DNA of 57,745 bases from an uncultured Dehalococcoidaceae bacterium (GCA_964545815.1 CAZJGR010000003.1:1-57745); one strand, 5' to 3'; shown: positions 30,668 to 54,418, counted from the first letter of the stretch. Numbers and translations: made by a program. The notes: generated by a model not told the origin, from the sequence alone.

Positions 30668-31174
30668 TCACTGCGGCAGGTACTTTTGCCACTCAAGCCT
30701 GGCCTGGCGGTAGTGGTAAGGGATGCTGAATAAGAGGTTGTCGCCGGGGTAAGCCGGTTTGCGGGTGAGCTTCATCCCGGCTTCCTGCGGGGTTCTTCCT
30801 GCCTTGCGACGGTTGCAGGGCACACAGGCGCTGACCACGTTTTCCCAGGTGTGCTGTCCGCCCCGGTAGCGGGGGATGATGTGGTCAATGGTCAATTGTT
30901 TGGTCTCCCGGCCGCAGTACTGGCAGGTATATTTATCACGGTTGAAGACCTCATAGCGGGTCAGCTTTTTCTGCCGGTAGGGACGTTTCACCATGTAGGC
31001 CAGGCGGATTACGGAAGGAAGCTCAAAGCTATCGCTGACGGTGTGGATAAAGCCAACACCGTTCTCCAGCATCTCCGCCTTGCCCTGGTAAATCAGCACC
31101 ACGGCGCGCTTGGCCCGGCATATGGTGAGCGGTTCATAACTCTGGTTCAGTACCAGAACGGGAACATTTATCAT
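30668..31174 (-). CDS. HNH endonuclease family protein
   Basis: 168 aa. CQYCGR....LTIDHIIPRYRGGQHTWENVVSACVPCNRRKAGRTP is the HNH/McrA-type motif. Confidence 0.88.
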   Translation of the reverse strand: MINVPVLVLNQSYEPLTICRAKRAVVLIYQGKAEMLENGVGFIHTVSDSFELPSVIRLAYMVKRPYRQKKLTRYEVFNRDKYTCQYCGRETKQLTIDHIIPRYRGGQHTWENVVSACVPCNRRKAGRTPQEAGMKLTRKPAYPGDNLLFSIPYHYRQARLEWQKYLPQ

Positions 31175-31298
31175 CTTCTGGCTTTCTTTCTTTCCGAGAT
31201 TACTTCATTTTACTAGAAAAGCCCAAGCAGAAGCAAACAAATCAATTTTTTTGACAAAAGCCTTGGGTTTGGCCATTCCAACTTCCTTACCAGAGAGT

Positions 31299-32438
31299 CT
31301 ATTTTTTAGTCTGGCTGGCGACAAAGCGCATGGCACATTCGGCGGCATTGGCCAGCAGTTTCTTCGCCTGGGCCATGGACTGCTCAAGCGTGATGGGTCC
31401 CGGGGCGATGCTCATCACGGCATCGATTCCCTGGTCAAAGACCACGCGGCAATCGTCGGCCACCTCACCCGCCAGCGCGATGACGGTCGCGCCGAATTTC
31501 TTGGCGGCCATGGCCACGCCGGTGGGCACCTTGCCCATCGCCGACTGGCAGTCAATGCGGCCCTCGGCGGTAAAGACAAGCTGGGCACCTTTTAAATCAG
31601 CCACCAGATTGGTTGCCCGGATGACAACATCGATGCCGGGCACCATCCTGGCTTTCAGGAAGACCATCAGCCCCAGCCCCAATCCGCCGGCCGCCCCCGC
31701 CCCGGGCACGTCCCTGAGGTCGATATCAAGGTCTCTTTTAATTACGTCAGCGTAATGCGAGAGCGCGGCATCAAGCTGCTTCACCATCTCGGGGGTGGCG
31801 CCTTTCTGCGGGCCATAGATGGCAGATGCGCCTCGAGGTCCGCACAGCGGGTTGTTGACATCGGAAGCGAGCGTCACTTTAAAGTCAGCCAGCCGCCGGT
31901 CCATGGCGGAAATATCGATGCGAGACAGCCTGGCCAGCGCGGCACCGCCGAAGGGGAGTTCCTTGTCATCAGCGTCGAGGAGCCTGGCACCGAGTGCCTG
32001 CGCCATGCCGGCACCGCCGTCATTGGTGGCACTGCCCCCGATGCCGATAATCAGCTTTCGGCAGCCGTGGTCAAGCGCGGCGCGAATGAGCTCACCGGTA
32101 CCGTAGGTGGTGGTAATCAGCGGATTGCGCTTCTCCGGGGGCACCAGCGGCAGACCGGAGGCAGAGGCCATCTCAATCACGGCGGTGGTCTTATCGTTCA
32201 GGATTCCCCAGCGGGCGTTCACCCGTTCCCGCAGCGGTCCGGTGACCTCGGTGGCCATCATTTCGCCGCCGGTGGCATCGACCAGTGCCTGTACCGTGCC
32301 CTCACCGCCATCGGCCATTGGCTTTAATACCGTTTCCGCATCCGGCACGATGCGCTTTACCCCTTCCTCAATGGCCCGCGCTGCTTCCAGAGCGGTGAGG
32401 TTGCCTTTAAATCCTTGGGGGGCAATGACTATCTTCAT
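31299..32438 (-). CDS. glycerate kinase (GlxK/GarK class I family)
   Basis: 379 aa. MKIVIAPQGFKGNLTALEAARAIEEG...MADGGEGT......GSATNDGGAGM.QALG. Confidence 0.9.
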   Translation of the reverse strand: MKIVIAPQGFKGNLTALEAARAIEEGVKRIVPDAETVLKPMADGGEGTVQALVDATGGEMMATEVTGPLRERVNARWGILNDKTTAVIEMASASGLPLVPPEKRNPLITTTYGTGELIRAALDHGCRKLIIGIGGSATNDGGAGMAQALGARLLDADDKELPFGGAALARLSRIDISAMDRRLADFKVTLASDVNNPLCGPRGASAIYGPQKGATPEMVKQLDAALSHYADVIKRDLDIDLRDVPGAGAAGGLGLGLMVFLKARMVPGIDVVIRATNLVADLKGAQLVFTAEGRIDCQSAMGKVPTGVAMAAKKFGATVIALAGEVADDCRVVFDQGIDAVMSIAPGPITLEQSMAQAKKLLANAAECAMRFVASQTKK

Positions 32439-32472
32439 GGCATCGCTCCATCAGAGAAAGGCTGGCGTTTTT

Positions 32473-33747
32473 TCACCCATTGCCTCTGGCATTCCGGTAG
32501 GCTTCGTCAAGCAGTTCCACGATTTCGAGGACAGATACCGGCAGCTTCTGCTGGCCCACGCCGCAGGAAAGCTGCATAATGCAGGCAGGGCAGCTTGTAA
32601 CTAAAGTATCAGCGCCGGTCTTGGCAACGTTGCCCATCTTTCGCTCCAGCACCTTCTGGGATAAGTCATAGTTCTTGAAGGCGTAGCTCCCTGCGGCACC
32701 ACAGCACATATCCGCCTCACCCATCTCCACAAACTCAACGCCCGGGATGCTTTTCAGTATGGTGCGAGGCTGGTTCTTTATTTTCTGGTAGTGGGCGAGA
32801 TGGCAGGGGTCGTGGAAGGTAACTTTTCTTTTGAGCTCGCCCATTTCGGTGTTCAGGCCGATGCCAACCAGGAATTCGCTGATGTCCCTGGCTTTGCCGG
32901 CAAATTCCTTTGCCTTCTCCGCCCATTCTGGGTCGTCAGCCAGCAGCTTGGCGTAGTCTTTCAGGAAGGAACTGCAGCTGGCACAGGGCGTAACGATGGC
33001 GTCCACCTTGAGCTTGCTGGCCATCTCTATGTTTTTCTTGGCCAGGTTCCTGGCCGATTCCATATCGCCATAGCCGGCGGCGGGCAGGCCGCAGCAGACA
33101 AAGTCGGGCACGGCCACTTCCACCTGGTTTTTATTGAGCACACGAATCGTGGCGGCGGCTCTTTCCGGCGCGAGGTTGGGGGCGTAGCAGCCCACGAAAT
33201 AGGCCACGCCATATTTAGGCTTATCTATCTTTTTCACCAGGCGCTTTATGGCTTCCAGCCCTTCGCTGGCGGGCACTCTCGGCACCATGGCCTCTGCCTT
33301 GCCGGCGTCTCCTGCCAGTCTGGTCAGGCCGGTCTTCCTCGCCAGAGTACGCAGGCCGGTGACATCGGCCAGCCTGAGGAGCCGTGAAGCCCTGTGGAGC
33401 AGTTCCGGGTTGGGCAGCAATTTCTGGAACAGCAGGCGCTGTAGCCAGGAGCCTCCTTTCTGCCTGAGCAGCTCCTGCCTGGCCCTGAAGATAATGTCTC
33501 CGGTGGGCACCGCAGGTGGGCAGTGCTCCGTGCAACCGTTGCAGGTCAGGCAGTTGAATATGGGGTCATTCAGGTCAGCCAGCGCCAATCTTTTATCAAG
33601 AAGGGCGCTGCGGAGCAGGGCCACGCGCCCTCTGGCGTTGGTCCATTCTATTCCGGTAACTTTGTAGATGGGGCAGCCCGCCAGACAGAGCCCGCACTTG
33701 TTGCAAAGCTGTAATGTTTTCTCTAATTCCTCAGCCACGGTTGGCAT
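32473..33747 (-). CDS. (Fe-S)-binding subunit of a glycolate/D-lactate oxidase-type complex (GlcF-like)
   Basis: 424 aa. CNKCGLCLAGCP and CLTCNGCTEHCP (2x[4Fe-4S]) plus two CCG-type Cys-rich domains (..YFVGCY.., ..FHDPCHL..). Confidence 0.85.
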   Translation of the reverse strand: MPTVAEELEKTLQLCNKCGLCLAGCPIYKVTGIEWTNARGRVALLRSALLDKRLALADLNDPIFNCLTCNGCTEHCPPAVPTGDIIFRARQELLRQKGGSWLQRLLFQKLLPNPELLHRASRLLRLADVTGLRTLARKTGLTRLAGDAGKAEAMVPRVPASEGLEAIKRLVKKIDKPKYGVAYFVGCYAPNLAPERAAATIRVLNKNQVEVAVPDFVCCGLPAAGYGDMESARNLAKKNIEMASKLKVDAIVTPCASCSSFLKDYAKLLADDPEWAEKAKEFAGKARDISEFLVGIGLNTEMGELKRKVTFHDPCHLAHYQKIKNQPRTILKSIPGVEFVEMGEADMCCGAAGSYAFKNYDLSQKVLERKMGNVAKTGADTLVTSCPACIMQLSCGVGQQKLPVSVLEIVELLDEAYRNARGNG

Positions 33748-33749
33748 AA

Positions 33750-35114
33750 TCAGTATAGACCTCCTGCCAGTCGACCCGGGTTCAGGATGTTATTCGGGTC
33801 GAACTCAGTTTTCAGTCGTCTCATTAATGGGTAGTCATTGCGTGGCGGCAGCATATCCGCTTCTTTGCGGAACGAAAGCGGCGCCGATTCGATGAGGAAG
33901 AACCCGCCCAGACTGGCCGCCGCCTGCTTCAGTTCGTCGGCGATGCGAACCAGTTTCCCGGACTCGTCGGACAGGTAAGTATAGAGGATTCCGTTGCCGC
34001 AGTGGGCCGTCACGCCAATTGCCACGCCCTGGCGGGCGCTGATTTTCTTTACCTGTTGTGCCATATCTCCCAGCTTGCTGATGGGCACCGAGGCCTTGCC
34101 CTGAAGAGCTGATGGGCTGGCACCGAGCATTGCCTCGTGGATACCACGATACGCCGCCCAGGCACGAGAGGCTTTTTCGCCTTCAAGGATAATCGTGGCC
34201 TTCGCCTTATTTGCCTCCGCCAGAGTTTTTATCTCCTTCTGATGACGCATCACATCGTCCTTGACTCCTTCGGAGTTGGCGATTAAAAGCACCTCACCGT
34301 TATTTAGGCTTGAGCCTATGGCTTCGGCCACTTCAACGCCGGCGACGGCATCAACCAGCTCAATGGCGCTGGGGTTCAATGGTGAATTCAGGAGCTGGCC
34401 GACCATGCGGAAAGCGTCTTCAGGGTCAGGGAAAGTGATATAGAGGCCTGTGCTTGCTTCCGGCAGAGGGAAAAGTCTCAGCACGGCCTCGGTGATGACG
34501 CCCAGGGTGCCCCACGAGCCAATATACATCCGGCACAGGTCAAAGCCGGCCACGTTCTTCATCGTCTTCCCGCCGGTATGTGTGATGTCGCCGGTCGGGG
34601 TGACCGCCGTGACCCCGAGAACAAGGTCGCGAATCAATCCGTACATAATCCTTCGCGGCCCGTTGGCACTGGCGGCGATTTCCCCGCCGATGGTCGAACG
34701 CTCCGCATAGAGCGGGTCGACGGGGAAAAAGAGGTTCTTCTCCGCCAGTTGCTTCTGCAGCTCGCCGTTGACTATGCCTGCCTGTACCTGGACGGTGAAA
34801 TTGCTGGCATCAAGCTCGATAATCTGGTTCATATTTTTCAGGCAGAGCACGGTTTCGGCCGCTTCCAGGCATGGGCCGACCTGCTGCTTGGAGCCGCCCC
34901 CCCACGGGACGATTGTTACCCGGGATTCATTAGCTTCCCTGATGATACTGGCTATCTGCTTATTTGAAGCTGGGCAGACGATGGCTTGGGGAGTGAACCC
35001 GTCAGCGGTAAAGGGCGCGGTTGCCTTTTCGCCGGTCAGCACATTCTCAGCGCCAGCGATTTTGCCGAGCTTCTGATAGAAAGCCTGCTTCTCCGGTGGA
35101 ACGGTCTTATTCAT
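33750..35114 (-). CDS. FAD-binding oxidase, GlcD/GlcE family (second FAD subunit)
   Basis: 454 aa. FAD_binding_4-type N-terminus (..IVCPASNKQIASIIREANESRVTIVPWGGGS..) and a C-terminal ..FDPNNILNPG. Longer than canonical GlcE, so it is named by family only. Confidence 0.8.
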   Translation of the reverse strand: MNKTVPPEKQAFYQKLGKIAGAENVLTGEKATAPFTADGFTPQAIVCPASNKQIASIIREANESRVTIVPWGGGSKQQVGPCLEAAETVLCLKNMNQIIELDASNFTVQVQAGIVNGELQKQLAEKNLFFPVDPLYAERSTIGGEIAASANGPRRIMYGLIRDLVLGVTAVTPTGDITHTGGKTMKNVAGFDLCRMYIGSWGTLGVITEAVLRLFPLPEASTGLYITFPDPEDAFRMVGQLLNSPLNPSAIELVDAVAGVEVAEAIGSSLNNGEVLLIANSEGVKDDVMRHQKEIKTLAEANKAKATIILEGEKASRAWAAYRGIHEAMLGASPSALQGKASVPISKLGDMAQQVKKISARQGVAIGVTAHCGNGILYTYLSDESGKLVRIADELKQAAASLGGFFLIESAPLSFRKEADMLPPRNDYPLMRRLKTEFDPNNILNPGRLAGGLY

Positions 35115-36565
35115 TCCTGTGCTGCCCCTTCCTTCGCTGGCAGTGGTGCTTCTTTCTCCGGTGGGAACATCTTCCCCGGGTTAAAGATATCATCGGGGTC
35201 AAAGACATGCTTCACCTGGCGCATGGCGGCGATGTCCGCCGAGTCAAACATGGAATGCATGGCGTCTATCTTCTCCAGACCGATGCCGTGCTCGCCGGAT
35301 ATGGTACCGCCCATAGCGACGCAGGCATCAAGGATAATTGCGCCGGCTTTTTTAGCCGCTTTACGTTCCTCCGGGTTATTAACGTCAAAAAGAATCAGAG
35401 GGTGAAGGTTACCGTCGCCAGCGTGGGCCACATTGACGATGAGCACTTTATTTTTCTCCGCAATCTCGCCTACCTTGCGGAGGGCTTCGGGCAGCTTATT
35501 CCTGGGGACAGTGCCATCGCATACGATGTAAGGAGGGCAGATTCTGGCCACCGACCCGAAAGCCCCCCGGCGGCCTTTCCATAGTGCATCGCGTTCGGCA
35601 TTGGTCTGAGCAATGCGCAGTTCACGCACTTTGTCTTTCTGGCAGATCTGTGATATCTCCCGGACCTGCTTTTCCAGTGTATCGGCCAGCCCGGCGACTT
35701 CAATCAGGAGGATGCCGGCGGCATCGGTGGGGTAGCCGGCGCTCACACTCTGCTCAATTACCTGGCACATTTTCTGGTCGAGAAGCTCCATGGCTCCGGG
35801 AATGATGCCGGCGCTGATGATATCAGAGACCGCCTGACCGCTGTCTTCAAGATGGTTGAAGATGGCCAGCATGGTCTGTGATGCTTCCGGTTTGGGAATG
35901 ATATGCAGCACTAACTTGGTGGCCACGCCCAGCATTCCCTCGGAACCAATAAACGGGCCTCTCAAATCGTAGCCCGGGAAATCTTCAACATAGTCGCCGA
36001 CATTGACCACCTCGCCATCGGCCAGAACGATTTCTATGCCGCATACGTATTTGGAAGTTACCCCGTAACGGAGACACATTGGTCCACCGGCGTTCTCACC
36101 GATGTTGCCGCCCAGTGTGGAGCTTTTCTGGCTGGCCGGGTCCGGCGGATAGAAATAACCGAGCGGCGCTAGGGCATTCTGCAAGTCGAGGTTGACCACC
36201 CCGGGCTCAACCACTGCCCTCCGGTTGGCCGTATTTATCTCAAGAATCCGGTTCATACGACTGGTCTCCAGAACGATTCCGCCTTTGACCGGGATGGTGC
36301 CGCCGGACAGGTTCGTGCCCGCCCCTCGGGGCACTACCGGTATCTTTTCCCGATGGGCCAGCTTCATTATCGCTGAGACTTCTTTTGTGCTGTGCGGAAA
36401 GACAATGACATCCGGCAGCTCCTGCCTCATCGTGGCGTCGTAGGAATAGGAAATCAGGTCTTTCAGGTCGGCCAGTACATTTTCTCGACCAACTATCCTG
36501 GTCAAATCTTTGATAAGGCTCCGCGCAATCAAATTGAGTTTCTCCTTCCCGTACACTCTATTCAA
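35111..36565 (-). CDS. glcD: FAD-linked oxidase, glycolate oxidase subunit GlcD / D-lactate dehydrogenase-like
   Basis: 484 aa. ..VVFPHSTKEVSAIMKLAHREKIPVVPRGAGTNLSGG......GTISGEHGIGLEK.......K..FDPD.IFNPGK. Confidence 0.85.
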   Translation of the reverse strand: MNRVYGKEKLNLIARSLIKDLTRIVGRENVLADLKDLISYSYDATMRQELPDVIVFPHSTKEVSAIMKLAHREKIPVVPRGAGTNLSGGTIPVKGGIVLETSRMNRILEINTANRRAVVEPGVVNLDLQNALAPLGYFYPPDPASQKSSTLGGNIGENAGGPMCLRYGVTSKYVCGIEIVLADGEVVNVGDYVEDFPGYDLRGPFIGSEGMLGVATKLVLHIIPKPEASQTMLAIFNHLEDSGQAVSDIISAGIIPGAMELLDQKMCQVIEQSVSAGYPTDAAGILLIEVAGLADTLEKQVREISQICQKDKVRELRIAQTNAERDALWKGRRGAFGSVARICPPYIVCDGTVPRNKLPEALRKVGEIAEKNKVLIVNVAHAGDGNLHPLILFDVNNPEERKAAKKAGAIILDACVAMGGTISGEHGIGLEKIDAMHSMFDSADIAAMRQVKHVFDPDDIFNPGKMFPPEKEAPLPAKEGAAQE

Positions 36566-36616
36566 TGAAACAAGCGGTAATGCTGTGGCTTGGCGTTATC
36601 GCCCTGAGTCATTTAG

Positions 36617-37513
36617 CTATAATCTGGCCCATGCCTCCATAAGGGTGCGTTTGGCATTGGCCACCACCACGTCTGGGCTTTGCCCGGCCAGCGGCTTGAC
36701 CTCGAAGGCAACCACGTTCTGTTTTCCCTCGCCAATATACCCTATTTCCATCAGGGCTTTTAAGAACAGCCTTACTTCTTCCACATCGTTTTCACCGACG
36801 GCGAGCCCAAACGGGGGGTGTTTGTCTCCGTAGGCAGGGTGGCTTTTATCTTTCAGTATGCAGCTGCCGATGTGTACGTGTGTCAGGTAGTCCCTGGCCG
36901 TTTTAACGGCGTAGTCAGGCGTCTCTTTAAGCAGCGGCAGGTGGCTCAGGTCAATCATCAGGCCGAAGTTTGGATAGCGGCGTTTCACCTCCCTAGCTAC
37001 CTGAACCGCTTCTCCCGTGGGTCCAATGAGGCATTTCTTATCGTAATCCCGGTCAAATATCTCCATGGTGATGCCGAGGTTGCCCTTGGTCTGCGCGTAG
37101 CTGCAAATCTGCGAAAGCGAGTCGACCAGCAGTTCTTTTGCCTGGCGGTATTTCTCCTTGGCTGGTGCCGGACCGCTGAGCACGGCAAGCTTCCTGGCAC
37201 CTATCATATATGCCTCATCGATGCCAGCTTTAATTATGGAGATGGCGGCCTCCCGCTGCTGTGGTATCAGACTGTTGAGGTCAAGTTTGTTATTCAGAAG
37301 CAGCGGCTGGCCAACATAACCGATAAGGAGGTGGCTTGCCCCGAGTATCTGCGTTACCTCATCCCGAATCTCCTCTGGAATTGAGGTAATCTCGATAGCG
37401 CTGAAGAAGGCGTCCTCGGCAATCTTTCTGATGGACTCAACCGTATCCATCTCCGGATAGGCCATCAGCTGTACGATGCCGACCTTCATATAAGAATGCA
37501 GGTTTTCTCTCAT
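36617..37513 (-). CDS. xylose-isomerase-like TIM-barrel protein (sugar phosphate isomerase/epimerase family)
   Basis: 298 aa. The pattern ..ARKLAVLSG..., ..GITMEIF.., ..GLMIDLSHL.., ..THVHIG.. gives the E/D/H/E-type metal ligand spacing of the AP_endonuc_2 family. Specific activity unknown. Confidence 0.7.
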   Translation of the reverse strand: MRENLHSYMKVGIVQLMAYPEMDTVESIRKIAEDAFFSAIEITSIPEEIRDEVTQILGASHLLIGYVGQPLLLNNKLDLNSLIPQQREAAISIIKAGIDEAYMIGARKLAVLSGPAPAKEKYRQAKELLVDSLSQICSYAQTKGNLGITMEIFDRDYDKKCLIGPTGEAVQVAREVKRRYPNFGLMIDLSHLPLLKETPDYAVKTARDYLTHVHIGSCILKDKSHPAYGDKHPPFGLAVGENDVEEVRLFLKALMEIGYIGEGKQNVVAFEVKPLAGQSPDVVVANAKRTLMEAWARL

Positions 37514-37515
37514 GG

Positions 37516-37713
37516 CTATAACTCCTTTCGGAAATTCGCTGGAATGAAGTGCGGGTTGGTGCTTGGGTAAACTGTGACCGGGGGCGCTATTGCGGCGGGC
37601 TTTCTGAAAGTACGGCTATTCGGTTCAATTTTTCTTTTAAGGGTATCAAAGTTGACTGAAATACCATTTTCCGATTTCTGTACGGTGGCCTCGGTTTCTG
37701 GTATTCTGCTCAT
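37516..37713 (-). CDS. small hypothetical protein (65 aa)
   Basis: The ORF ends 2 nt upstream of the TIM-barrel gene start, inside a co-directional operon. No family recognised; low-complexity and Pro-rich in its second half. Confidence 0.4.
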   Translation of the reverse strand: MSRIPETEATVQKSENGISVNFDTLKRKIEPNSRTFRKPAAIAPPVTVYPSTNPHFIPANFRKEL

Positions 37714-37794
37714 ACGTTACCTCTGTGTAACTGCAGCAATGGGGGCGCTCACCTCAAATATAACATAGCACCTATATGGCGTCAAGGAAAACGC

Positions 37795-39069
37795 TCACTC
37801 TTCCAGCAGGGGGAGGATGAGGGGTCCTTCCGGAATGACGATGATTTCCGCATCATCTCCCAGAACGGAAAAAGCCCTCTCCATGCCTTCCTCAACGGTG
37901 CGGACCGGCGTTATCATCATATCGCGGACGGTGCCGTCATCCAGATTTGAGACCAGATAAATATCCTGTTTCAGCTGGGTGCGGGCCAGTATCTGGTTTT
38001 CCCACTGCACACCGATGGGCTCTTCCCGTTTTATCTTCCGGAGCACCTCTTTGGGAGAACCGACCGAGCGGTGCAGCTCCAGGAATGCCTCTGGCCCGAT
38101 GCCGGCGCGGCATGATGAGACCGTGATTATTATGCCACCATCGCGGGTGACCTGTGAGGCGGTGTCAATGCCCTTGCAGGTCTGGTACAGGTCCAGGTCA
38201 AGTGGTGCCCCGCTGTTGGTGGTTATGGTGATGTCTGCTCTCCGGGACACTTTAACGCCGGCGATTTCCTTCTCTATCTGGCAGCCTTTCTCATGGGCCC
38301 GGAAGGGGTGGCCGGCCACAACGTGGGTGATTTCATTTCGCTTATTGAGCAGCACATTGACGATGAAATTGAGCTTGGCCATCTGTGCCTGCTCTATCAT
38401 ATCTTCGTGGATAGGGTTGCCCTGCAGAATACCGGCCCGGACCTTTGGGTGCTCTATCATCTGGTAGCCATGGTTATGGTAGGCAGAGCGGACGCTGAAC
38501 ACCCCCGGAGCGATGCTTTTCCGTCCCCCGGAAAAGCCGGCAAAGAAATGTGGCTCGATAAAGCCGGTGCTGATGCGGAAATCGGCTTCAATGACGCGGC
38601 GGTTGATGTCTACCGGTGTTCCCCGTGAGGTGGTGCCAATGTAGACGGTATCGTTCACATCGTGGTTAACGACCTTATAGCTGGCCACGATGTCTTTGCC
38701 CAGTTTTCGGGAGAGCTCAGGCTCATTCAGCGGCGGGTGCAGGCCGAGGGCGACGATAATGGTGATGTTTTCCCGCGGCACTTTGCTTTCCAGCTCGGCG
38801 AGCAGCGGCGGCAGGATGCGGTCATCAGGGCAGGGCCTGGTATTATCGGTGGCCAGGACCACCACCTTAGCGTTGGGTTTAATCAGGTCGCGCAGCGGCG
38901 GTGAATCTATCGGCGAGCGCAGGCTCTGAATGATGGCTTCTCTTTCATCAACCAGACCCCTGGCGTCCTGCCTGGTGAGAATGCAGACAATGTTCTTGGC
39001 CGGTATCCGCGCCTTTAGCGAACATTCCCCGCAGGGTAATTCAATCTCGGTCAGTTCCATTCTTGGCAT
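37795..39069 (-). CDS. LarA family nickel-pincer-cofactor-dependent 2-hydroxyacid racemase/epimerase homolog
   Basis: 424 aa. ..VVLATDNTRPCP.. (compare LarA DxTRP), ..ALGLHPP.. (His of the ATGxH motif) and ..FIEPHFFAGFSGGRKSIAPG.. (LarA catalytic His and NPN-binding Lys region). Substrate not assignable. Confidence 0.85.
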   Translation of the reverse strand: MPRMELTEIELPCGECSLKARIPAKNIVCILTRQDARGLVDEREAIIQSLRSPIDSPPLRDLIKPNAKVVVLATDNTRPCPDDRILPPLLAELESKVPRENITIIVALGLHPPLNEPELSRKLGKDIVASYKVVNHDVNDTVYIGTTSRGTPVDINRRVIEADFRISTGFIEPHFFAGFSGGRKSIAPGVFSVRSAYHNHGYQMIEHPKVRAGILQGNPIHEDMIEQAQMAKLNFIVNVLLNKRNEITHVVAGHPFRAHEKGCQIEKEIAGVKVSRRADITITTNSGAPLDLDLYQTCKGIDTASQVTRDGGIIITVSSCRAGIGPEAFLELHRSVGSPKEVLRKIKREEPIGVQWENQILARTQLKQDIYLVSNLDDGTVRDMMITPVRTVEEGMERAFSVLGDDAEIIVIPEGPLILPLLEE

Positions 39070-39122
39070 TGTGCTCCCTTGCCCAGAGTGGGGAAGAGAC
39101 AGCGATTATTTCAGCAATTGAA

Positions 39123-39500
39123 TCAGGGTTTTTTACCGGCGGTTTTAACCAGAAGCTTGGCGGCGCGAGCCGGATTGAAGATGCCGCTCACCACCACCGA
39201 AAGCCCCAGGTCTGCCTCTTTGAGGTCTTTCAGCGCTCCGGTTACTGCCTGCGGGTTGTCAAATACGGCATGGGTATCGCCACGGGTGTCCGCGATGATT
39301 TCCTCAGGCCGGTACTCATACAGGCTGCCCTTGGTCTCACAGCCAATGTTCACCGGGTTATGACGCAGGCAGATACGTAAAAACTCCTGCAATTTCGGGA
39401 TGTAGTCCGTATCATTGACGCCGATGGCTTTAAGCATCAGGATAACGTAGTCCCCGCTCAGGCTCTCCGCCGTCCCACGACGGTGCAGCGTGTGTGTCAT
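39123..39500 (-). CDS. uncharacterized protein, short paralog (125 aa) of the adjacent 205-aa gene
   Basis: MTHTLHRRGTAESLSGDYV... By hand alignment, 62 of the first 107 residues are identical to the neighbouring ORF, and the C-terminal FNPARAAKLL is shared. No family recognised. Confidence 0.75.
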   Translation of the reverse strand: MTHTLHRRGTAESLSGDYVILMLKAIGVNDTDYIPKLQEFLRICLRHNPVNIGCETKGSLYEYRPEEIIADTRGDTHAVFDNPQAVTGALKDLKEADLGLSVVVSGIFNPARAAKLLVKTAGKKP

Positions 39501-39563
39501 CGGTTCGCTCCTTGAATGCAGACGGACTTCTCGAAACTATTTACTGGTTACGAGCGCCGGCGG

Positions 39564-40181
39564 CTATTTCTTGGCCATGGCCGCCAGCAACTTGGCCGCC
39601 CGAACCGGATTAAAGATGCCGCAGGCACACTGTGGTGTCAGGACTTTGGCTGCTTCATCCGGAGTCTTCCGCCCCGCTTTGATATCGTCTACCATGGACT
39701 TAATCAGGTTGGCGGAGATCATGGCGTGCCCGCACATCGTATGGACTTCGAGAATGTCATTACTGGGCAGTTTTTCGGTCTTGCCCCAGATGCCGAGCGA
39801 GAAATTGGCGGTGTGATGTTTCAGTCCGGCCTTCGCCAGGCATTCGTCAACCTTCTCGTAAATGCCACTTATCACCACGGACATCCCCAGCCCTGCCTTT
39901 TCCAGGTCTTTGAGCACGTCAACCACCTGGTCCTGCTTGACAAAGACGGCGTGGACGATGCCGTGAGCAGACTTAACCACCTCTTCCTTGGAGTGGCTGT
40001 ACATGTTGCCCGTGGAGATGGCACCGATGTTGACCGGGTCATGGCGCAGGGCGATGCGCAGGAACTCCGCCAATTTGGGTTCATGGTTCTTATCGTTGAA
40101 GCCAATGGCCGTCAGGCAGACCAGTACATAGTCTTGACTCAAGCTCTCCGCAGTACCACGTCGATGTAAACTATGTGTCAT
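39564..40181 (-). CDS. uncharacterized protein, long paralog (205 aa) with 82-aa Cys/His-containing insert
   Basis: MTHSLHRRGTAESLSQDYV... It has the same architecture as the 125-aa neighbour plus an insert at aa 108-189 (nt 39615-39860) containing HTMCGHAM and PQCACGI. No family recognised. Confidence 0.8.
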   Translation of the reverse strand: MTHSLHRRGTAESLSQDYVLVCLTAIGFNDKNHEPKLAEFLRIALRHDPVNIGAISTGNMYSHSKEEVVKSAHGIVHAVFVKQDQVVDVLKDLEKAGLGMSVVISGIYEKVDECLAKAGLKHHTANFSLGIWGKTEKLPSNDILEVHTMCGHAMISANLIKSMVDDIKAGRKTPDEAAKVLTPQCACGIFNPVRAAKLLAAMAKK

Positions 40182-40196
40182 TCATCTCCTCCTGAT

Positions 40197-40913
40197 TTAA
40201 ACATTGGCCAGAGGCCGGCCCAGGCCAACATTCTGTTTGCCGTTGATGTAATGGGGGATTCCCATCTCGTCGAGCAGCTTGAGCAGAGGGTAGGAGCCAT
40301 CGGGTTCAGCGCGGTTGATGACCTCAACGCTGAAGACAGTATCCACTTTCTTGGCTACCTCTTTCAGGGCAGTGATGATTTCCTTGAACTTCCCGATGGG
40401 GAACATGCACTCGATGATGGCGGAGAGCACCTTTTCCTTAAGCACCTCTTGCTTGAGCTTGCCGGTCTTTTTATCTTCCATCAGGAAGGTAACCGGGTTC
40501 TTGGGCTCAAACTCCGCGCCGTGCTTGGCCAGCACCTGGGACACCTTGTCCAGGTCATAGAAGCGGGTGCCGATGCCCGGTCGGCCAAACTCGCAGCCCA
40601 GGCCGACCCAGCCGCGCTTGAAGCGGCCGGTGACATCGTTGGTCTTCATCTCCTCCGTGCCGCGGCCGGCAATCCTCGTCTCCTTGTGCTCGGTCCTGGG
40701 GTCGGAGAAGGTGTTGCGCAGGGAGCGCGGCCAGGGTGCCGGCTCGAAGACGAAGGCGTCAACGGGGCAGACCTTTGACCTGAGGCAGACGGAGCAGTCC
40801 ACGCACTCCTCCTCATCGATGACGGCCACATCATTCTTCATGCTGATAACCCCCATCGGGCAGTAGGGCAGACAGGCCTCACAGGCGATGCACAGTTCCG
40901 GGTCAATTTTCAT
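40197..40913 (-). CDS. 4Fe-4S dicluster ferredoxin domain fused to a ~170-aa domain of unknown function
   Basis: The N-terminus has CIACEACLPYCP and CVDCSVCLRSKVCP. The remainder (..RTEHKETRIAGRGTEEMKTNDVTGRFKRGW...) matches no family I recognise. Confidence 0.8.
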   Translation of the reverse strand: MKIDPELCIACEACLPYCPMGVISMKNDVAVIDEEECVDCSVCLRSKVCPVDAFVFEPAPWPRSLRNTFSDPRTEHKETRIAGRGTEEMKTNDVTGRFKRGWVGLGCEFGRPGIGTRFYDLDKVSQVLAKHGAEFEPKNPVTFLMEDKKTGKLKQEVLKEKVLSAIIECMFPIGKFKEIITALKEVAKKVDTVFSVEVINRAEPDGSYPLLKLLDEMGIPHYINGKQNVGLGRPLANV

Positions 40914-40937
40914 TCTGCACTTTTCTCCTTCAATAAT

Positions 40938-42776
40938 TTATTTTGCCAGGTCTTCAATGCCCAGCTCTTTCAAGGTCTTGGGCAGTGGCATTCCGGTTTT
41001 TCTATCCCAGCCCATCAACTGGTAGTACTGGTCCATCATCTTTTCCCAGTGAGGGGCAATGGGCTTATCTTTGTTCGGGCCGTCCACAGACTGTGAGCAG
41101 TACCTTGGTGATGGCTTCTCCTTGCCCGGCGTCAGCCCGCACTTGAGGTTGTAGATGCGCAGCAGGTTGACGATGCGCCGGCCAATCTTCATTACCTCTT
41201 CCAGGCTGATGTTCCAGCCCGTAGCGGCATTGATGGCCTCGACCTGGGTCTCGGTATCGTTGAAGCTGGTGAACCAGCACTGGACAAGGCAGTCGCTGAT
41301 GGTCATTGAGCCAGTGGAGTTAACCTCGGCCTGGACGACATGGTCCGGGTTGAAAATGTCCATGGGATTGGGCATCTTCCACAGGGCTTTGTTCACCACC
41401 AGCATCTGGGTCTGAATCGTGCCGGTGTCGGAAATCGCGGTGTCAAGCATTTCCACCCAGCGTCCCCGGTGGTCATGGCCTCTCGGCGAATTGCCTTTGC
41501 CGGTGAAGATAGCCCATTTTACCGCCTCACCGCCCAGCTTCTCGGCGGCACTTTTCACGCCTTCGGCCAGGGTATTGCCGTAGCCGCGGCGCCTGGCTAT
41601 GTTTTCCAGCAGGGCGCGGGTTGCCTCAACGTTACCCCAGGTCATTTCCAGACCGTCGAGGTCTTTCTTCTTCAGCGCGCCTTTTTCGTAGCACTCCATT
41701 ACCCAGCCCACGACCCAGCTGGCCTCATTGCAGTCCATGCCAAGGCGGTCGCATACGTTGCTGAGCATGACAGCAGCGCCGGGGTCTTTCTGCCCAATTT
41801 GTGGTCCCCAGGCGGCCCACTGCTCATACTCCGGCTCCTTGCCGAAGAAATCTTTATACGGGCCCTCGGTGACGGTCATGAGCTCGTAGTGATGGGAAGC
41901 GCAGCCATAGCACGGGTAGGTCTGGCTCTGGAAGAGCGGGCGCACCCGCTGGCCATCAAAGAGGTCTTTTTCCGGGAAGACGTTGGTCAGGTAATTCTTG
42001 ACCGGCAGCCAGCCGGCAGCTTCCGCGCCCGGCACCACCCGGCTGGTCCCCCAGTTGAAAACGCCACCGCCACCAAAGCTTTTAGCACCTTCAGTGGTCT
42101 TCTTGGCCAGCTCGCCGATTTTCGGTGCGTCAACGAACTGAAGTTTGTTGGGGGCACGCTGGGCGGCAAATGCCTTGAGCTTTTTCGAGCCGAGCACAGC
42201 ACCGACGCCGTTGTGGGCGGCGGAATGCCCCCGGTCTCCGAATAGGCCGGCAAACCGCACCATCTTCTCACCCGCCGGGCCGATGCTGAAGACGCTCATT
42301 CCCCGTTCTTTATAGCCCAGTTCTGCCTTGATGGCGTCTTCTGTTTCCCAGGTATCCTTGCCCACTAATTTGCTGGCATCCCTGAGCTCGGCGCCACCTT
42401 CATGCAGGTAGAGGTATTTCCAGGTGGGGGAAGCGCCCTGAACGACGATGGCGTCATAGCCGCACCACTTCAGGTAGGCACCGAAATTCCCGTTGGCCTG
42501 TGTTGAAGTAGCGCCGTTGGTCATGGCACCTTTAGTGGTTATGGAGATGGTGGCGCAGCCGGGAATTCGGCTGCCCCCGAGAACGCCTGAGCCGAGGAAG
42601 AAAATGTTCTTCGGGTCAGACCAGTTAAGCTTGGGGTCCACCAGTTCCATCAGATACTTGGTGCCAAGCCCGGTACCACCGAGATATTTGCGGAGCGTGG
42701 CCTCGTCCAGAGCTTCGTCCCACAGTTTACCCTGAGTCAGGTTGACTCTCAGCACTTTGCCCGTAGAACCATACAT
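40938..42776 (-). CDS. aldehyde:ferredoxin oxidoreductase family (tungstopterin) enzyme
   Basis: 612 aa. MYGSTGKVLRVNLTQGKLWDE....RKYLGGTGLGTKYL is the AOR N-terminal domain, and AOR domains 2/3 follow throughout. Confidence 0.9.
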   Translation of the reverse strand: MYGSTGKVLRVNLTQGKLWDEALDEATLRKYLGGTGLGTKYLMELVDPKLNWSDPKNIFFLGSGVLGGSRIPGCATISITTKGAMTNGATSTQANGNFGAYLKWCGYDAIVVQGASPTWKYLYLHEGGAELRDASKLVGKDTWETEDAIKAELGYKERGMSVFSIGPAGEKMVRFAGLFGDRGHSAAHNGVGAVLGSKKLKAFAAQRAPNKLQFVDAPKIGELAKKTTEGAKSFGGGGVFNWGTSRVVPGAEAAGWLPVKNYLTNVFPEKDLFDGQRVRPLFQSQTYPCYGCASHHYELMTVTEGPYKDFFGKEPEYEQWAAWGPQIGQKDPGAAVMLSNVCDRLGMDCNEASWVVGWVMECYEKGALKKKDLDGLEMTWGNVEATRALLENIARRRGYGNTLAEGVKSAAEKLGGEAVKWAIFTGKGNSPRGHDHRGRWVEMLDTAISDTGTIQTQMLVVNKALWKMPNPMDIFNPDHVVQAEVNSTGSMTISDCLVQCWFTSFNDTETQVEAINAATGWNISLEEVMKIGRRIVNLLRIYNLKCGLTPGKEKPSPRYCSQSVDGPNKDKPIAPHWEKMMDQYYQLMGWDRKTGMPLPKTLKELGIEDLAK

Positions 42777-42793
42777 GCTTTAAACTCCTCCTT

Positions 42794-43138
42794 TCATCCC
42801 CCATAAAAGCCTGGGGTTAGTTTTACATTGTCTCCTTCTTTAAGCTCAGTATTGAGGGCATGAAGCGAAGATAAAAAGGTGCCGTTATAAATCACGGCAC
42901 AGTAGTCAAGCAAATTTTGTTTGGCATCGATAAAGGCTTTCTGCCTGAACTTGGGATATTTCCTGGCCAGCTGTTGCAGCAAATCCATTATTGACGAACC
43001 CCGGGCAACTTCCTGGTCGAAAATCAGCTTGTCCCAGCCTTCATGGCCGAAGTCCTCCTTAAGCCAGGCCATAACCTCAATGCTGACCTTTATTTTTGTC
43101 CTTGCTTTAACCCCGGTTCCAGACACACCCGCTTCCAT
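42794..43138 (-). CDS. MoaD/ThiS-like ubiquitin-fold protein with C-terminal Gly-Gly
   Basis: 114 aa ending ..LKEGDNVKLTPGFYGG. Located immediately upstream of the AOR gene. Confidence 0.7.
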   Translation of the reverse strand: MEAGVSGTGVKARTKIKVSIEVMAWLKEDFGHEGWDKLIFDQEVARGSSIMDLLQQLARKYPKFRQKAFIDAKQNLLDYCAVIYNGTFLSSLHALNTELKEGDNVKLTPGFYGG

Positions 43139-43187
43139 ACCGGTCCCAGTTTCCTGTTTGGTCGATATGCGGAATGTAAGTTAAATG

Positions 43188-43955
43188 TTATGATTGTCCC
43201 CGTGCCATCTGTAGATATTCGCGCCCTGACTTCACCAGCATCGTTACGGCATTGTAAGTGATGAACTTGAAGCCCTGTTCCTGGCGCAGTTTCAGCGTTT
43301 CCGCATCATAGGCGATAGTGCCGGTCGCCCTGCCGGCAGCGTGAATCTCCTTGACGAGTTTGGCAATCATTTTATGCACTTCAGGGTGGTTCTGCTGACC
43401 GGTGTAACCCATGGCTGCGGACAGGTCGTTCGGGCCGATGAAGACAATGTCGACGCCGGGAACGGTCAGTATCTCTTTGAGGTTTTCCACCGCCTCCATG
43501 GTCTCTATCTGCACGATGACCAGGTTCTGGCGGTTTGCTTCCTCTACGTACTTGGCTGTCGGCCCCCACATTCCCCAGTTGTTAGCCCTGACCCCGGCCA
43601 GACCTCTCCGGCCCACCGGCCGGTACCTGACCGAACGCACCACATTTTCCACGTCCGCCTTGGTATTGAGCAGCGGCAGCTGAACGCCCAGTGCCCCCAT
43701 GTCAAGGTAGCGCAGAATGTTCTGCTGGATGTTCATGGCAATGCGAACCAGTGGTGTGATATTGACCACATCGGCGGCCCGTATCATCTGCTCACAGGTC
43801 TCCAGACCCATGGGGCCATGCTCGGCATCTATTAGGGCGAAATCAAAGCCAAGATGACCGATGACTTCGACAATGGCGGGGGAGGGGATATTGATGAAGA
43901 CACCGTAGGCGGTTTCGCCGGCCAGGATTTTCTCCTTGGTCAGGTTCTTTCTCAT
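43188..43955 (-). CDS. HpcH/HpaI family 2-keto-3-deoxy-acid aldolase
   Basis: 255 aa. ..GVFINIPSPAIVEVIGHLGFDFALIDAEHGP.......R......TPLVR......I.R.LD.GA.GV..P is the class II pyruvate aldolase pattern. Confidence 0.88.
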   Translation of the reverse strand: MRKNLTKEKILAGETAYGVFINIPSPAIVEVIGHLGFDFALIDAEHGPMGLETCEQMIRAADVVNITPLVRIAMNIQQNILRYLDMGALGVQLPLLNTKADVENVVRSVRYRPVGRRGLAGVRANNWGMWGPTAKYVEEANRQNLVIVQIETMEAVENLKEILTVPGVDIVFIGPNDLSAAMGYTGQQNHPEVHKMIAKLVKEIHAAGRATGTIAYDAETLKLRQEQGFKFITYNAVTMLVKSGREYLQMARGQS

Positions 43956-43996
43956 GCTTCTTTCTTACCCTTCTTTCCAAAACCTAAACTGCTGGT

Positions 43997-44026
43997 ATGT
44001 TAGCACAGGCCTATTTTATTTGTCAA
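43997..44026 (-). promoter_or_regulatory. candidate promoter of the long reverse-strand catabolic operon
   Basis: On the reverse strand: TTGACA (44026-44021), an 18-nt spacer, then TAACAT (44002-43997), about 40 nt upstream of the aldolase ATG at 43955. Confidence 0.4.
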
Positions 44027-44079
44027 AAATAGGGTCGCTTTATTTTAAAGTGCCGTGGTTAAAAAGGGAAGGTCAATCG

Positions 44080-44088
44080 TGCTATAAT
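44080..44088 (+). promoter_or_regulatory. candidate extended -10 element (TGcTATAAT) for the Trm112-like gene
   Basis: TGCTATAAT at 44080-44088. The first in-frame ATG (44096) is only 7 nt downstream, so the transcript would be leaderless, or translation starts at the second ATG (44111). Confidence 0.35.
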
Positions 44089-44095
44089 CGGGGTT

Positions 44096-44278
44096 ATGAA
44101 AAGAGGGCTTATGGACATCCTGGTCTGTCCGGTGTGCAAGGGGGAACTGCAATTAACGGTGGCTGAAGAAAACGAAGAGGAAATTGTCAGCGGCAAACTG
44201 AACTGTGGCAAATGCAGGGTGGACTACCCGATTGTGGATACCATCCCCAACCTGCTGCCGCCAGACCAGCGCGATTAG
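44096..44278 (+). CDS. Trm112/UPF0434 family zinc-ribbon protein
   Basis: 60 aa. MDILVCPVCKGELQL.....L.CGKCRVDYPIVDTIPNLL is the Trm112p-like pattern. Confidence 0.8.
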   Translation: MKRGLMDILVCPVCKGELQLTVAEENEEEIVSGKLNCGKCRVDYPIVDTIPNLLPPDQRD

Positions 44279-44646
44279 TCAGGCCGGTAGGTGGCACCGC
44301 TCTGGGGAGATTCCCAGACCTCAACGCTGGAGACAGAGACCGGTGTCCCGGCCAGCTTTTCCCCGAGTTCACGGTAGATTATCGTGGCCAGGTGCTCGGA
44401 GGAGGGGTTTATTTCGTCAAATGGTGGCACGTCATTGAGGCAGGTGTGGTCAAATTTGCCTAGGACGTCATTCAGGTGTTTTTTCAGCTCGGTGAAGTCG
44501 TAGGCTATGCCGGCGTCATCGAGCTTATCAGCATTTACCTTGGCCACCACGCGAAAACGATGTCCGTGCAGCGCCTCGCACTTTCCACGGTAACCGCGCA
44601 GGAAGTGGGCGGCATCAAAATGGCTTTCGACGGCTATTTCATACAT
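44275..44646 (-). CDS. 6-pyruvoyl-tetrahydropterin synthase family protein (QueD / PTPS paralog)
   Basis: 123 aa. MYEIAVESHFDAAHFLRGYRGKCEALHGHRFRV.. carries the CxxxHGH motif of QueD/PTPS. It is the last gene of the folP-folK-PTPS operon. Confidence 0.85.
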   Translation of the reverse strand: MYEIAVESHFDAAHFLRGYRGKCEALHGHRFRVVAKVNADKLDDAGIAYDFTELKKHLNDVLGKFDHTCLNDVPPFDEINPSSEHLATIIYRELGEKLAGTPVSVSSVEVWESPQSGATYRPD

Positions 44647-54128: not shown

Positions 54129-54130
54129 GA

Positions 54131-54418
54131 TTAACCTCCTCCTATGGGAAAGATGATGGCGATTTCATCGCCGTCTTTGATTTTATGGTCCATATCAGAC
54201 GTGGACCTGATGATGGACTCGTTTAATTTGATGAGGAAGTGGGCCATTTCACCGGTATTCGGGTCCCAGATTTTCTCCTTGAAAGGCCGGCCGTACCGGT
54301 GCACCAGTTCCTGGAAGAGCCCGCCTACCGTTTCCGGTTTGTTGACGTCGATTTCAATTATCTCCGCCCCGAGCACGTCCCGGATTACGGAGAAGCTTTT
54401 TACCTTCACTCTGGCCAC
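54131..54418 (-). CDS. MoaD/ThiS-like ubiquitin-fold protein with C-terminal Gly-Gly
   Basis: 95 aa. MARVKVKSFSVIRDVLG... ending DGDEIAIIFPIGGG. Located directly upstream of the second AOR gene. Confidence 0.75.
   Translation of the reverse strand: MARVKVKSFSVIRDVLGAEIIEIDVNKPETVGGLFQELVHRYGRPFKEKIWDPNTGEMAHFLIKLNESIIRSTSDMDHKIKDGDEIAIIFPIGGG

Follow-up and report, generated by a model that had tools for sequence, protein, structure and literature searches.

A conserved Dehalococcoidales gene island with a divergent tungsten-type oxidoreductase, a predicted iron-sulfur heterodimer and a LarA homolog, and its possible role in the breakdown of sugar acids

A 57,745-nucleotide stretch of DNA from an uncultured Dehalococcoidaceae bacterium (GCA_964545815.1 CAZJGR010000003.1:1-57745), called the window in the following, carries between positions 31299 and 43955 thirteen genes on the reverse strand (Table 1). 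A preliminary description, made from the DNA alone, had interpreted these genes as a non-phosphorylative sugar-acid route built around a tungsten-dependent aldehyde oxidoreductase (AOR) and a homolog of the lactate racemase LarA. All 13 open reading frames (ORFs) were confirmed at their coordinates on the minus strand, and the gene families that had been named were upheld by matches to Pfam and NCBIfam profiles, the assignments being made against the curated and equivalog cut-offs. The host genome (G000; C-numbers denote its contigs and L-numbers loci in metagenome-assembled genomes, MAGs) comprises 1.64 Mb and is 89.5% complete; in a scan of a genome collection its relatives were Dehalococcoidales/Dehalococcoidaceae MAGs. 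A description of such a cluster or island in Dehalococcoidia was not found in the literature searched.

Table 1. Positions in the window of the thirteen genes and two promoter-like sites, with the basis of each assignment.
Feature	Positions	Strand	Basis
Promoter-like site P1, TTGACA-18-TAACAT with TG, 5' of aldolase	43997..44026	-	Scan and conservation in 7 loci
Class II pyruvate aldolase, HpcH/HpaI family	43188..43955	-	PF03328, 124.5 bits (cut-off 25)
MoaD/ThiS-like beta-grasp protein	42794..43138	-	PF02597, 35.8 bits (cut-off 22.5)
Tungsten-oxidoreductase (AOR/WOR) large subunit	40938..42776	-	AFOR_N 201.2 bits, AFOR_C 302.9 bits
FdFus, N-terminal 2x[4Fe-4S] domain and about 170 residues without family	40197..40913	-	Fer4 at residues 1-58
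unk205	39564..40181	-	No Pfam or NCBIfam match
unk125	39123..39500	-	No family match; similarity to unk205
LarA homolog, LAR group	37795..39069	-	Lar_N and LarA_C; NF033504, 446.6 bits
Internal promoter-like site P2, TTGACG-17-TATATT with TG	37757..37785	-	Scan and conservation in 7 loci
65-residue upstream ORF	37516..37713	-	No family match
Xylose-isomerase-like TIM barrel, divergent	36617..37513	-	AP_endonuc_2 (PF01261), weak, 55 bits
GlcD-like FAD subunit	35111..36565	-	FAD_binding_4 and FAD-oxidase_C; TIGR00387, 524.3 bits
Second FAD-linked oxidase subunit, GlcE position	33750..35114	-	FAD_binding_4 124 bits, FAD-oxidase_C 85 bits
GlcF/LdhH-like Fe-S subunit, 2x[4Fe-4S] and two CCG domains	32473..33747	-	CCG 137 bits, Fer4_8
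Glycerate kinase, PF02595 class	31299..32438	-	PF02595, 519.7 bits

The thirteen same-strand genes form a real conserved cluster. Their common direction alone is little proof of this, and the promoter and terminator scans are at chance level; it is synteny which makes the cluster more than chance. The genome-collection scan with unk205 gave 42 loci, onto which all thirteen window proteins were mapped. In 19 Dehalococcoidia loci, one genome per species, unk205 lies 5' of LarA, either directly or across inserted genes, and the downstream order is kept to the end of the contig. The succession AOR-FdFus-unk205 is kept in all ten loci that have upstream DNA, and in these the MoaD-like gene and the aldolase are retained wherever the contig extends, except for the aldolase in L022. 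The entire gene order is present in four loci (L018, L020, L025 and L027). Over all these loci the ortholog identities go from 92% (glycerate kinase) down to 49% (GlcE-like subunit). The view of the cluster as a unit, for which a comparison with other Dehalococcoidia had been suggested, thus stands on gene order conserved in 19 species-level loci.

Every full-order locus belongs to one order-level lineage, a fact that favors a competing explanation, in which independent modules are merely juxtaposed and have stayed adjacent only by vertical inheritance. One module would then be a lactate/glycolate unit (LarA, GlcDEF-type enzyme, glycerate kinase and TIM barrel) and the other a tungsten-oxidoreductase unit (oxidoreductase with redox partner and aldolase). 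We regard this explanation as unlikely; against it, the adjacency survives GlcE-like identities as low as 49%.

The transcriptional signals bear on the same question. A consensus promoter scan alone is at chance level (9 sites versus 7.2 expected), as is the terminator scan (17 versus 16.1 expected), and cross-species conservation alone was taken as evidence. The one upstream promoter candidate of the preliminary description, P1, holds by this standard: its −35 and extended −10 elements do not vary among 7 orthologous MAG loci, the flanks of which diverge. It is, however, not the only one. P2 begins 10 nt past the LarA stop codon, is likewise invariant in 7 MAG loci and precedes the TIM-GlcDEF-glycerate kinase block, which suggests that this block is regulated separately; because of this second conserved site a single transcript is not established. 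A conserved promoter directly after LarA is what juxtaposed modules would lead one to expect. On the other hand, no terminator-like site was seen by the scan between the LarA stop codon and P2, and since only 10 nt separate the two, read-through from P1 is likely, which speaks against full independence. It is thus probable that the island is transcribed from two promoters and that transcription from the first reads through.

The spacers had been called very short, which is true for a range of −4 to 63 nt but not for the gap of 281 nt between LarA and the TIM-barrel gene, unless the 65-residue ORF is included, which divides it into 81 + 2 nt. The Shine-Dalgarno sequence and the ATGAGC start of this ORF are invariant in 7 loci, its body is variable (tblastn identity 52-61% in 4 loci; shorter in L010 and L012) and its stop codon, 2 nt before the TIM-barrel start, overlaps the ribosome-binding site of the TIM-barrel gene. 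It may behave as a leader peptide or regulatory upstream ORF that is translationally coupled to the TIM-barrel gene. An Rfam scan by E-value over positions 31000-44500, including the 281-nt gap, revealed no riboswitch or other RNA family. A search for sequencing runs listed no RNA run; nine DNA runs from sediment, lake or wetland contain at most 0.26 of the words.

The tungsten oxidoreductase is by its AFOR_N and AFOR_C domains a member of the WOR family, with PfAOR (1aor, 310 bits) as its best solved relative. According to a classification published in 2026, Thr243, Glu313, Tyr427 and His448 of PfAOR and the cluster ligands are nearly invariant in the aldehyde-oxidizing members of the family (PMC13328260). 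Only two of these four hallmark residues, Thr243 and Glu313, are retained in the island's enzyme; in place of Tyr427 stands a His (GHDHRG), and the loop with His448 is missing. At the position of Arg182 the enzyme has His as well (AAHNG), and of the cluster ligands (C288, C291, C295 and C494 in PfAOR) the set is incomplete, the motif CYGCASHHYE having taken the place of C-x2-C-x3-C with no Cys at the position of Cys295. The substitutions and the loss of the His448 loop are uniform in 9 of 9 orthologs. The four paralogs in G000 that were compared (window 52260-54128, C19, C10 and C31) have kept the canonical Arg182, C-x2-C-x3-C and His448-loop motifs. In an exhaustive search of representatives, many of the nearest clusters (35-47% identity) have His for Arg182 together with HDxR and lack the His448 loop; solved or characterized enzymes are not among them. 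Judged by these shared substitutions, the enzyme belongs to a large uncharacterized WOR clade. The preliminary description had it oxidize an aldehyde: family membership, Thr243 and Glu313 agree with this, and aldehyde oxidation is plausible, but it is unproven because Tyr427, His448, Arg182 and Cys295 of PfAOR are not conserved.

These replacements lead to the proposal that the "AOR" and the FdFus/unk205 pair jointly act on a hydroxy- or oxo-acid in a different reaction linked to ferredoxin, such as a reductive dehydroxylation or the reduction of a 2-oxoacid or an acid, in the surroundings of an aldolase and hydroxyacid enzymes. All orthologs carry replacements at two of the four hallmark residues, at one cluster ligand and at one pterin-phosphate Arg; among the nearest representatives of the clade, many share the His for Arg182, the HDxR and the absence of the His448 loop; and WORs that do not act on aldehydes exist, namely BamB, PfASOR and CsWOR41, the last of which is without aldehyde activity (PMC13328260). 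Yet Thr243 and Glu313 are kept, the nearest solved relative is the classical PfAOR, the neighboring genes suit the products of aldehyde oxidation well, and nothing positive points to any alternative substrate. This proposal, which overlaps partly with the other readings, is in our opinion improbable.

On an unrelated contig a member of the same clade with 46% identity adjoins LutB/LutC, a LarA homolog and a dehydrogenase similar to tartronate-semialdehyde reductase (TSR). The recurrence of a set of AOR, LarA and lactate-utilization genes at this distance speaks against modules that are neighbors only by descent.

The MoaD-like protein ends in GFYGG, hence with a Gly-Gly C-terminus, and reaches 43.2 bits with TIGR01687, below the cut-off of 49.5. 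It is a probable factor for maturation of the tungsten cofactor; MoaD-like aorD and aorE are known from the aor operon of Aromatoleum aromaticum (PMC6365974). The second AOR of the window (52260-54418 with its MoaD) also has a MoaD-family gene directly upstream, which is above the cut-off (TIGR01687, 63.3 bits), so that the pairing of MoaD with AOR is a general habit of G000. The search for a tungstate-uptake system (tupABC), which had been suggested, brought up a TupA/TupB-like pair on C48 that scores 168.7 against 400 and 172.5 against 320 and is thus under the equivalog cut-offs; WtpA was not found in G000. Tungstate uptake by the organism is plausible.

FdFus and unk205 had been listed as a ferredoxin fusion protein and an unknown, that is as separate genes. 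They are an obligate pair: FdFus precedes almost every full-length unk205 homolog for which upstream DNA is present, and the pair, which often stands two or three times in tandem, is found in Dehalococcoidia, Syntrophaceae, NC10, Clostridia and Thermodesulfobacteriota. The unk205 family has at least 807 homologs, all of them named hypothetical. The conserved features of unk205, with three Cys and several His in all, are M-T-H-x-L-H-R-x-G at the N-terminus, which is invariant, the motifs TMCGH and CxCG and an HT motif; FdFus has eight invariant cluster Cys and conserves the motifs GRGTEEMKTNDVTGR, GRPG and, at the C-terminus, K-x-N-x-G. The predicted folds are of high confidence (pLDDT 91.9 for unk205 and, by AF2, 88.8 for FdFus). 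With Foldseek the unk205 fold found no clear match in the PDB, a wide fold search returned at best a generic ferredoxin-like alpha/beta fold (Z 6.9) and a feature search of the Atlas only clusters named "hypothetical protein". FdFus matched only the clostridial ferredoxin domain in the PDB and only unnamed "4Fe-4S binding" clusters in the Atlas. The pair thus gives a handle on a widespread enzyme family without known family or fold.

The two proteins are predicted to form a heterodimer. Their modeled complex has an ipSAE of 0.91, as compared to 0.00 for the best of 3 controls; of 80 solved complexes 58 reach this mark, and of 110 mismatched pairs 2 do. Between runs at least 92% of the contacts are the same, and the partner has a pLDDT of at least 92. 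The predicted interface is made up of the conserved motifs of both proteins and the ferredoxin cluster loops, and we take the pair to be a redox enzyme whose active site is composite. A set of three conserved Cys and a His is typical of site-differentiated [4Fe-4S] hydro-lyases and reductive dehydroxylases. That unk205 has exactly this set, and that in the model the conserved residues of both subunits line the interface by the cluster loops, is in favor of a ferredoxin-linked reaction other than aldehyde oxidation.

In Syntrophaceae, NC10, Clostridia and Thermodesulfobacteriota the pair occurs without any AOR, from which it follows that it is not simply an AOR subunit; the same finding is in line with juxtaposed modules. 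In Clostridia it lies beside Aminotran_5, glycerate kinase, LrgAB and GntP, in NC10 beside ureidoglycolate/allantoin genes, and in other anaerobes a 2-hydroxyacid dehydrogenase, TctABC and proteins with Fer4_11, Prismane and Pyr_redox_2 are nearby. In L034:2566-5855 an RraA-like gene (CHA/HMG aldolase-type) is located directly 5' of FdFus-unk205, next to a divergent EamA transporter, which links a second, non-homologous pyruvate aldolase to the pair; two second Dehalococcoidia loci (L032:1596-4122 and L033:7332-10621) have the ORF layout of L034, the likeness being one of layout only. The contexts elsewhere point to C2-C4 hydroxy- and oxo-acids as the compounds on which the pair may act.

Unpaired copies of unk205 are the third paralog directly upstream of LarA and an orphan on C11. 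The preliminary description was right in calling unk205 and unk125 paralogs (57% identity over 108 residues), but the 125-residue copy is an in-frame deletion derivative: it is 90-91% identical over 108-109 residues to full-length genes of 205/206 residues at the same position in L015 and L010, and has lost about 80 residues including the whole Cys/His block, so that two GIF motifs are joined. Probably this copy is decaying or is not catalytic, or else it results from an assembly collapse between the two GIF repeats. The C11 paralog (G000:C11:21436-22014; L071:6389-7015, minus strand) is 64% identical. It is a solitary copy with a MacB-type ABC permease on one side and a leucine-rich-repeat protein on the other; an FdFus partner for it was not detectable elsewhere in the genome.

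The LarA homolog was aligned with LarA1 from L. plantarum (5huq). It has kept the catalytic H108 and H174, the tether K184, the Ni ligand H200 and the carboxylate-binding R75, Y294, Q295 and K298; at the position equivalent to T359, which bears on specificity, it has Glu, a feature shared with the Thermoanaerobacterium enzyme and LarAH51. Its NF033504 score is narrowly below the equivalog cut-off of 460 bits, and its best match in the PDB is 2yjg (302 bits). Enzymes of the LAR group racemise lactate and also glycerate and 2-hydroxybutyrate (PMC11770544). The proposed function as a 2-hydroxyacid epimerase is hence backed by all catalytic and carboxylate-binding residues, but not by the genes larB, larC and larE: in the 89.5%-complete G000 none was found above cut-off by the search that had been recommended. 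Our search covered 31 genomes, the window genome and 30 relatives. In the family of the window organism LarA homologs are present in 18 of 18 genomes, with 1-7 per genome; a larE-larB-larC operon was found in 1 of the 18 (G006:C14:2632-4891) and in one genome of another family. Genomes free of larBCE include one that is 93% complete, consists of 10 contigs and encodes seven LarA homologs. G000 itself has four (window 37795-39069, two at C10:1274-3835, and C19:12124-12918). LarA may thus lack its cofactor, and its lineage seems to retain numerous nickel-pincer enzymes in the absence of the known route to their cofactor, a paradox of many LarA homologs and almost no nickel-pincer (NPN) cofactor genes.

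For FdFus and unk205 two roles related to nickel were considered and rejected. They are not NphT-type AKR nickel enzymes, as they belong to a different superfamily, nor an alternative pathway to the NPN cofactor, since the pair is present in loci and phyla without LarA nearby.

GlcD- and GlcF-type COGs have been recorded beside several LarA groups, so that LarA with such neighbors is a known stand-alone context (PMC7583248); this can be taken as an argument for a separate lactate/glycolate module. G000, however, has further associations of AOR with LarA. On C19 (8098-17427; L070:3099-12427) a LarA homolog stands next to an AOR in divergent orientation; around the two lie genes for an aminotransferase, an OYE/2,4-dienoyl-reductase-like flavoprotein and an indolepyruvate-type 2-oxoacid:ferredoxin oxidoreductase, and this association probably serves 2-oxo and 2-hydroxy acids derived from amino acids. 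On C10 (147-17072), in a stretch of 17 kb, two LarA homologs have a lactonase-like gene and a split GarD/UxaA-like dehydratase as neighbors, and an AOR is located at a distance of about 11 kb from them.

The aldolase is by its profile match a member of the HpcH/HpaI class II pyruvate aldolase family and conserves H45, R70, E149 and D175 of HpaI, all identical in the alignment to 4b5s. It remains under every equivalog cut-off (HpaI 183.7/368.8, GarL 166.8/393 and RhmA 146.9/441) and is equidistant from HpaI, RhmA and GarL, so that no substrate can be assigned to it from sequence.

With the equivalog models of hydroxypyruvate isomerase (Hyi) and 2-oxo-tetronate isomerase the TIM barrel scores 19.3 bits each, below their cut-offs; its best NCBIfam E-values are 5e-8 to 7e-4, and its best PDB match is D-tagatose 3-epimerase with 27 bits. 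Since a true Hyi is encoded on C54 (381.2 bits versus a cut-off of 353.45), the TIM barrel of the cluster should be something else. The names GlcD, GlcE and GlcF given to the next three subunits are correct with respect to domain architecture, but all three proteins are under the glycolate-oxidase equivalog cut-offs: the GlcD-like subunit falls short of the 567.9 bits of TIGR00387, the GlcE-like subunit, which is full length with 454 residues, has 157.2 versus 284, and the GlcF-like subunit has 193.7 versus 333, with 291.6 bits for the C-terminal half of LdhH. Glycerate kinase, in contrast, is by its profile scores clearly of the PF02595/TIGR00045 class (TIGR00045, 518 bits versus a cut-off of 168.45). 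A gene for an HNH endonuclease (window 30668-31174) follows on the same strand 124 nt downstream of glycerate kinase, and L018 has an ORF of equal size at this position.

Some of the orthologous loci contain additional genes. Before LarA, the loci L014, L017 and L024 have as inserts a CCG protein and a LUD/Fer4 protein (LutB/LdhH-like, 337 bits), together similar to the L-lactate dehydrogenase LutA/LutB. Inserts on the other side of LarA are pyruvate phosphate dikinase (PPDK; 985 bits, cut-off 843), present in L014 and L024, and a gene resembling glyoxylate carboligase (Gcl-like; 750 bits, cut-off 791), present in L013. In L014 and L024 the LutAB-like genes occupy the site at which other MAGs have a second FdFus-unk205 pair, and L017 has both. 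The inserts indicate a flow from lactate via pyruvate to phosphoenolpyruvate, and from glycolate/glyoxylate to glycerate. All of them fall exactly at the module junctions, which again favors independent modules.

The Gcl-like insert in L013 is also one of the reasons to consider a dedicated C2 route from glycolaldehyde via glycolate and glyoxylate to glycerate, in which the aldolase would not cleave sugar acids but act on glyoxylate plus pyruvate (4-hydroxy-2-oxoglutarate-type). The genome has Gcl-like (C23, 766 bits, with an IclR regulator), Hyi and TSR genes (C54, alongside Hyi; 405 bits, cut-off 341), and in other phyla ureidoglycolate/allantoin genes, Aminotran_5 and glycerate kinase are near FdFus-unk205. 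Such a route would leave no role for LarA, as glycolate is achiral; the LutAB-like and PPDK variants indicate lactate and pyruvate, and the aldolase is not close to any characterized glyoxylate-using enzyme. We consider it very unlikely.

G000 encodes in total 13 enolase-superfamily (MR_MLE) proteins, 9 HpcH aldolases and 5-6 AORs. On C55 (1121-6385) three MR_MLE proteins surround an HpcH aldolase, and candidates for lactonases of the PTE- and NHL/SGL-like types are present. Judged by this gene content, the investment in acid-sugar catabolism is unusually heavy for a Dehalococcoidales genome of 1.64 Mb. In L027 (1795-6056) the cluster is flanked by a divergent Tdh-like Zn-dehydrogenase, a DUF1537 D-threonate-kinase-like gene and a PdxA-family gene, a set which is a signature of four-carbon acid-sugar catabolism; the region upstream of the cluster in L020 resembles L027 in ORF layout only.

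Non-phosphorylative Entner-Doudoroff and Dahms-type pathways employ a KD(P)G-type aldolase, followed by the oxidation of glyceraldehyde or glycolaldehyde and then by glycerate kinase or glycolate oxidase; archaeal versions use a ferredoxin-dependent aldehyde oxidoreductase. The island is similar in that it joins a pyruvate aldolase, an enzyme of the aldehyde-oxidizing type, glycerate kinase and a glycolate/D-lactate dehydrogenase, and in that it would use ferredoxin-type acceptors rather than NAD. It differs in being bacterial, in having a class II HpcH aldolase instead of a class I KDG aldolase of the DHDPS/NAL type, a PF02595 glycerate kinase instead of the MOFRL type and an oxidoreductase from an atypical WOR clade, and in that LarA and an Fe-S heterodimer are added and a dehydratase is missing from the cluster. 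E. coli has the glcDEF glycolate oxidase, the gcl-hyi-glxR-glxK glycerate pathway and garPLRK (GarL aldolase, GarR and GarK). A GlcD/E/F-type enzyme, a glycerate kinase and an HpcH-family aldolase are found in the cluster, and Gcl-like, Hyi and TSR genes in the genome; but none of the three Glc-type subunits reaches its equivalog cut-off, the one in the GlcE position is a full-length protein, gcl and hyi-glxR lie unlinked on C23 and C54, the TIM barrel of the cluster is not Hyi and there is no malate synthase.

With LarA enzymes (5HUQ; 2YJG from T. thermosaccharolyticum; LarAH43 and LarAH51, PMC11770544) the homolog shares all catalytic, NPN-binding and carboxylate-binding residues; what sets it apart is that it adjoins a tungsten oxidoreductase and that larB, larC and larE were not found in its genome or in most of the family. 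In aorABCDE of A. aromaticum and in the WOR classes of Putumbaka et al. (2026) WorL is, as in the island, beside a MoaD-like gene and a ferredoxin-domain protein (PMC6365974, PMC13328260). By comparison, the partner in the island has two rather than four clusters, an additional domain that matches no family and a second subunit of this kind, there is no FAD subunit, and the active-site and cluster residues diverge. To LutABC, HdrBC and GlcF-type proteins FdFus-unk205 shows a functional analogy only, in that a ferredoxin-like Fe-S module meets a Cys-rich partner in a hydroxy-acid context; CCG and LUD domains are absent, and similarity in sequence or fold was not detectable.

We therefore favor, with a probability of about 0.45, the interpretation that the genes form a conserved, modular "lower-pathway" island of a host that by its gene content specializes in sugar acids. 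In the first module, under P1 (aldolase, MoaD-like protein, tungsten oxidoreductase and FdFus/unk205), the metal-dependent aldolase would split a 2-keto-3-deoxy (4-hydroxy-2-oxo) acid to pyruvate and a short aldehyde, which the tungsten-type oxidoreductase, matured with the help of the MoaD-like protein, would convert to lactate, glycolate or glycerate. The electrons would go to the ferredoxin domain of the FdFus/unk205 heterodimer, which would be a redox enzyme in its own right, the three Cys and His providing a third cluster site. LarA, the second module, would equilibrate L- and D-lactate and, more weakly, glycerate. In the third module, under P2 (small upstream ORF, TIM barrel, GlcD/E/F and glycerate kinase), the GlcDEF-type dehydrogenase would oxidize D-lactate to pyruvate and glycolate to glyoxylate; glyoxylate would be converted to D-glycerate through the unlinked gcl-like and hyi-glxR genes, and glycerate kinase would phosphorylate D-glycerate to phosphoglycerate, which would thus enter glycolysis. 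We infer every substrate, the direction of electron flow and any physical link between the oxidoreductase and the FdFus/unk205 pair.

Several of the findings weigh against this interpretation. The oxidoreductase has an altered cluster motif without Cys295, has His in place of Arg182 and Tyr427 and lacks the His448 loop; the aldolase is no closer to one of HpaI, RhmA and GarL than to the others and is missing from the orthologous locus L022; P2 may separate the regulation of the last genes from that of the first; FdFus-unk205 is found without AOR in other phyla; and larBCE were not detected in G000 and are present in a single genome of the family. Within 31299-43955 a family scan detected neither a sugar-acid dehydratase nor a transporter, as had already been recognized in the preliminary description; candidates for the dehydratase sit elsewhere in G000. 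Of the sugar-acid route originally proposed, the theme of short 2-hydroxyacids, aldehydes and glycerate thus persists, and the atypical oxidoreductase, the second promoter and the absence of larBCE are the points at which it has to be revised.

Beyond the pathway itself, the island may harbor an undescribed ferredoxin module, consisting of the divergent WOR and the new FdFus/unk205 family acting on hydroxy- or oxo-acids, together with a LarA that functions without the LarB/LarE/LarC cofactor route; this is a tentative proposal, possible though doubtful. If true, a WOR with a His-substituted cluster site and a remodeled active site would work with a two-subunit Fe-S family that has its three-Cys/His site at the subunit interface, and the LarA racemases would imply scavenging of the cofactor or a biosynthesis different from the known one. 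Such Dehalococcoidales are abundant, uncultured sediment bacteria whose carbon sources have largely been guessed. For them an island that processes C2/C3 fragments of sugar acids by ferredoxin-linked rather than NAD-linked enzymes is a testable model, in which the linkage to ferredoxin would conserve low-potential electrons in an energy-limited anaerobe.

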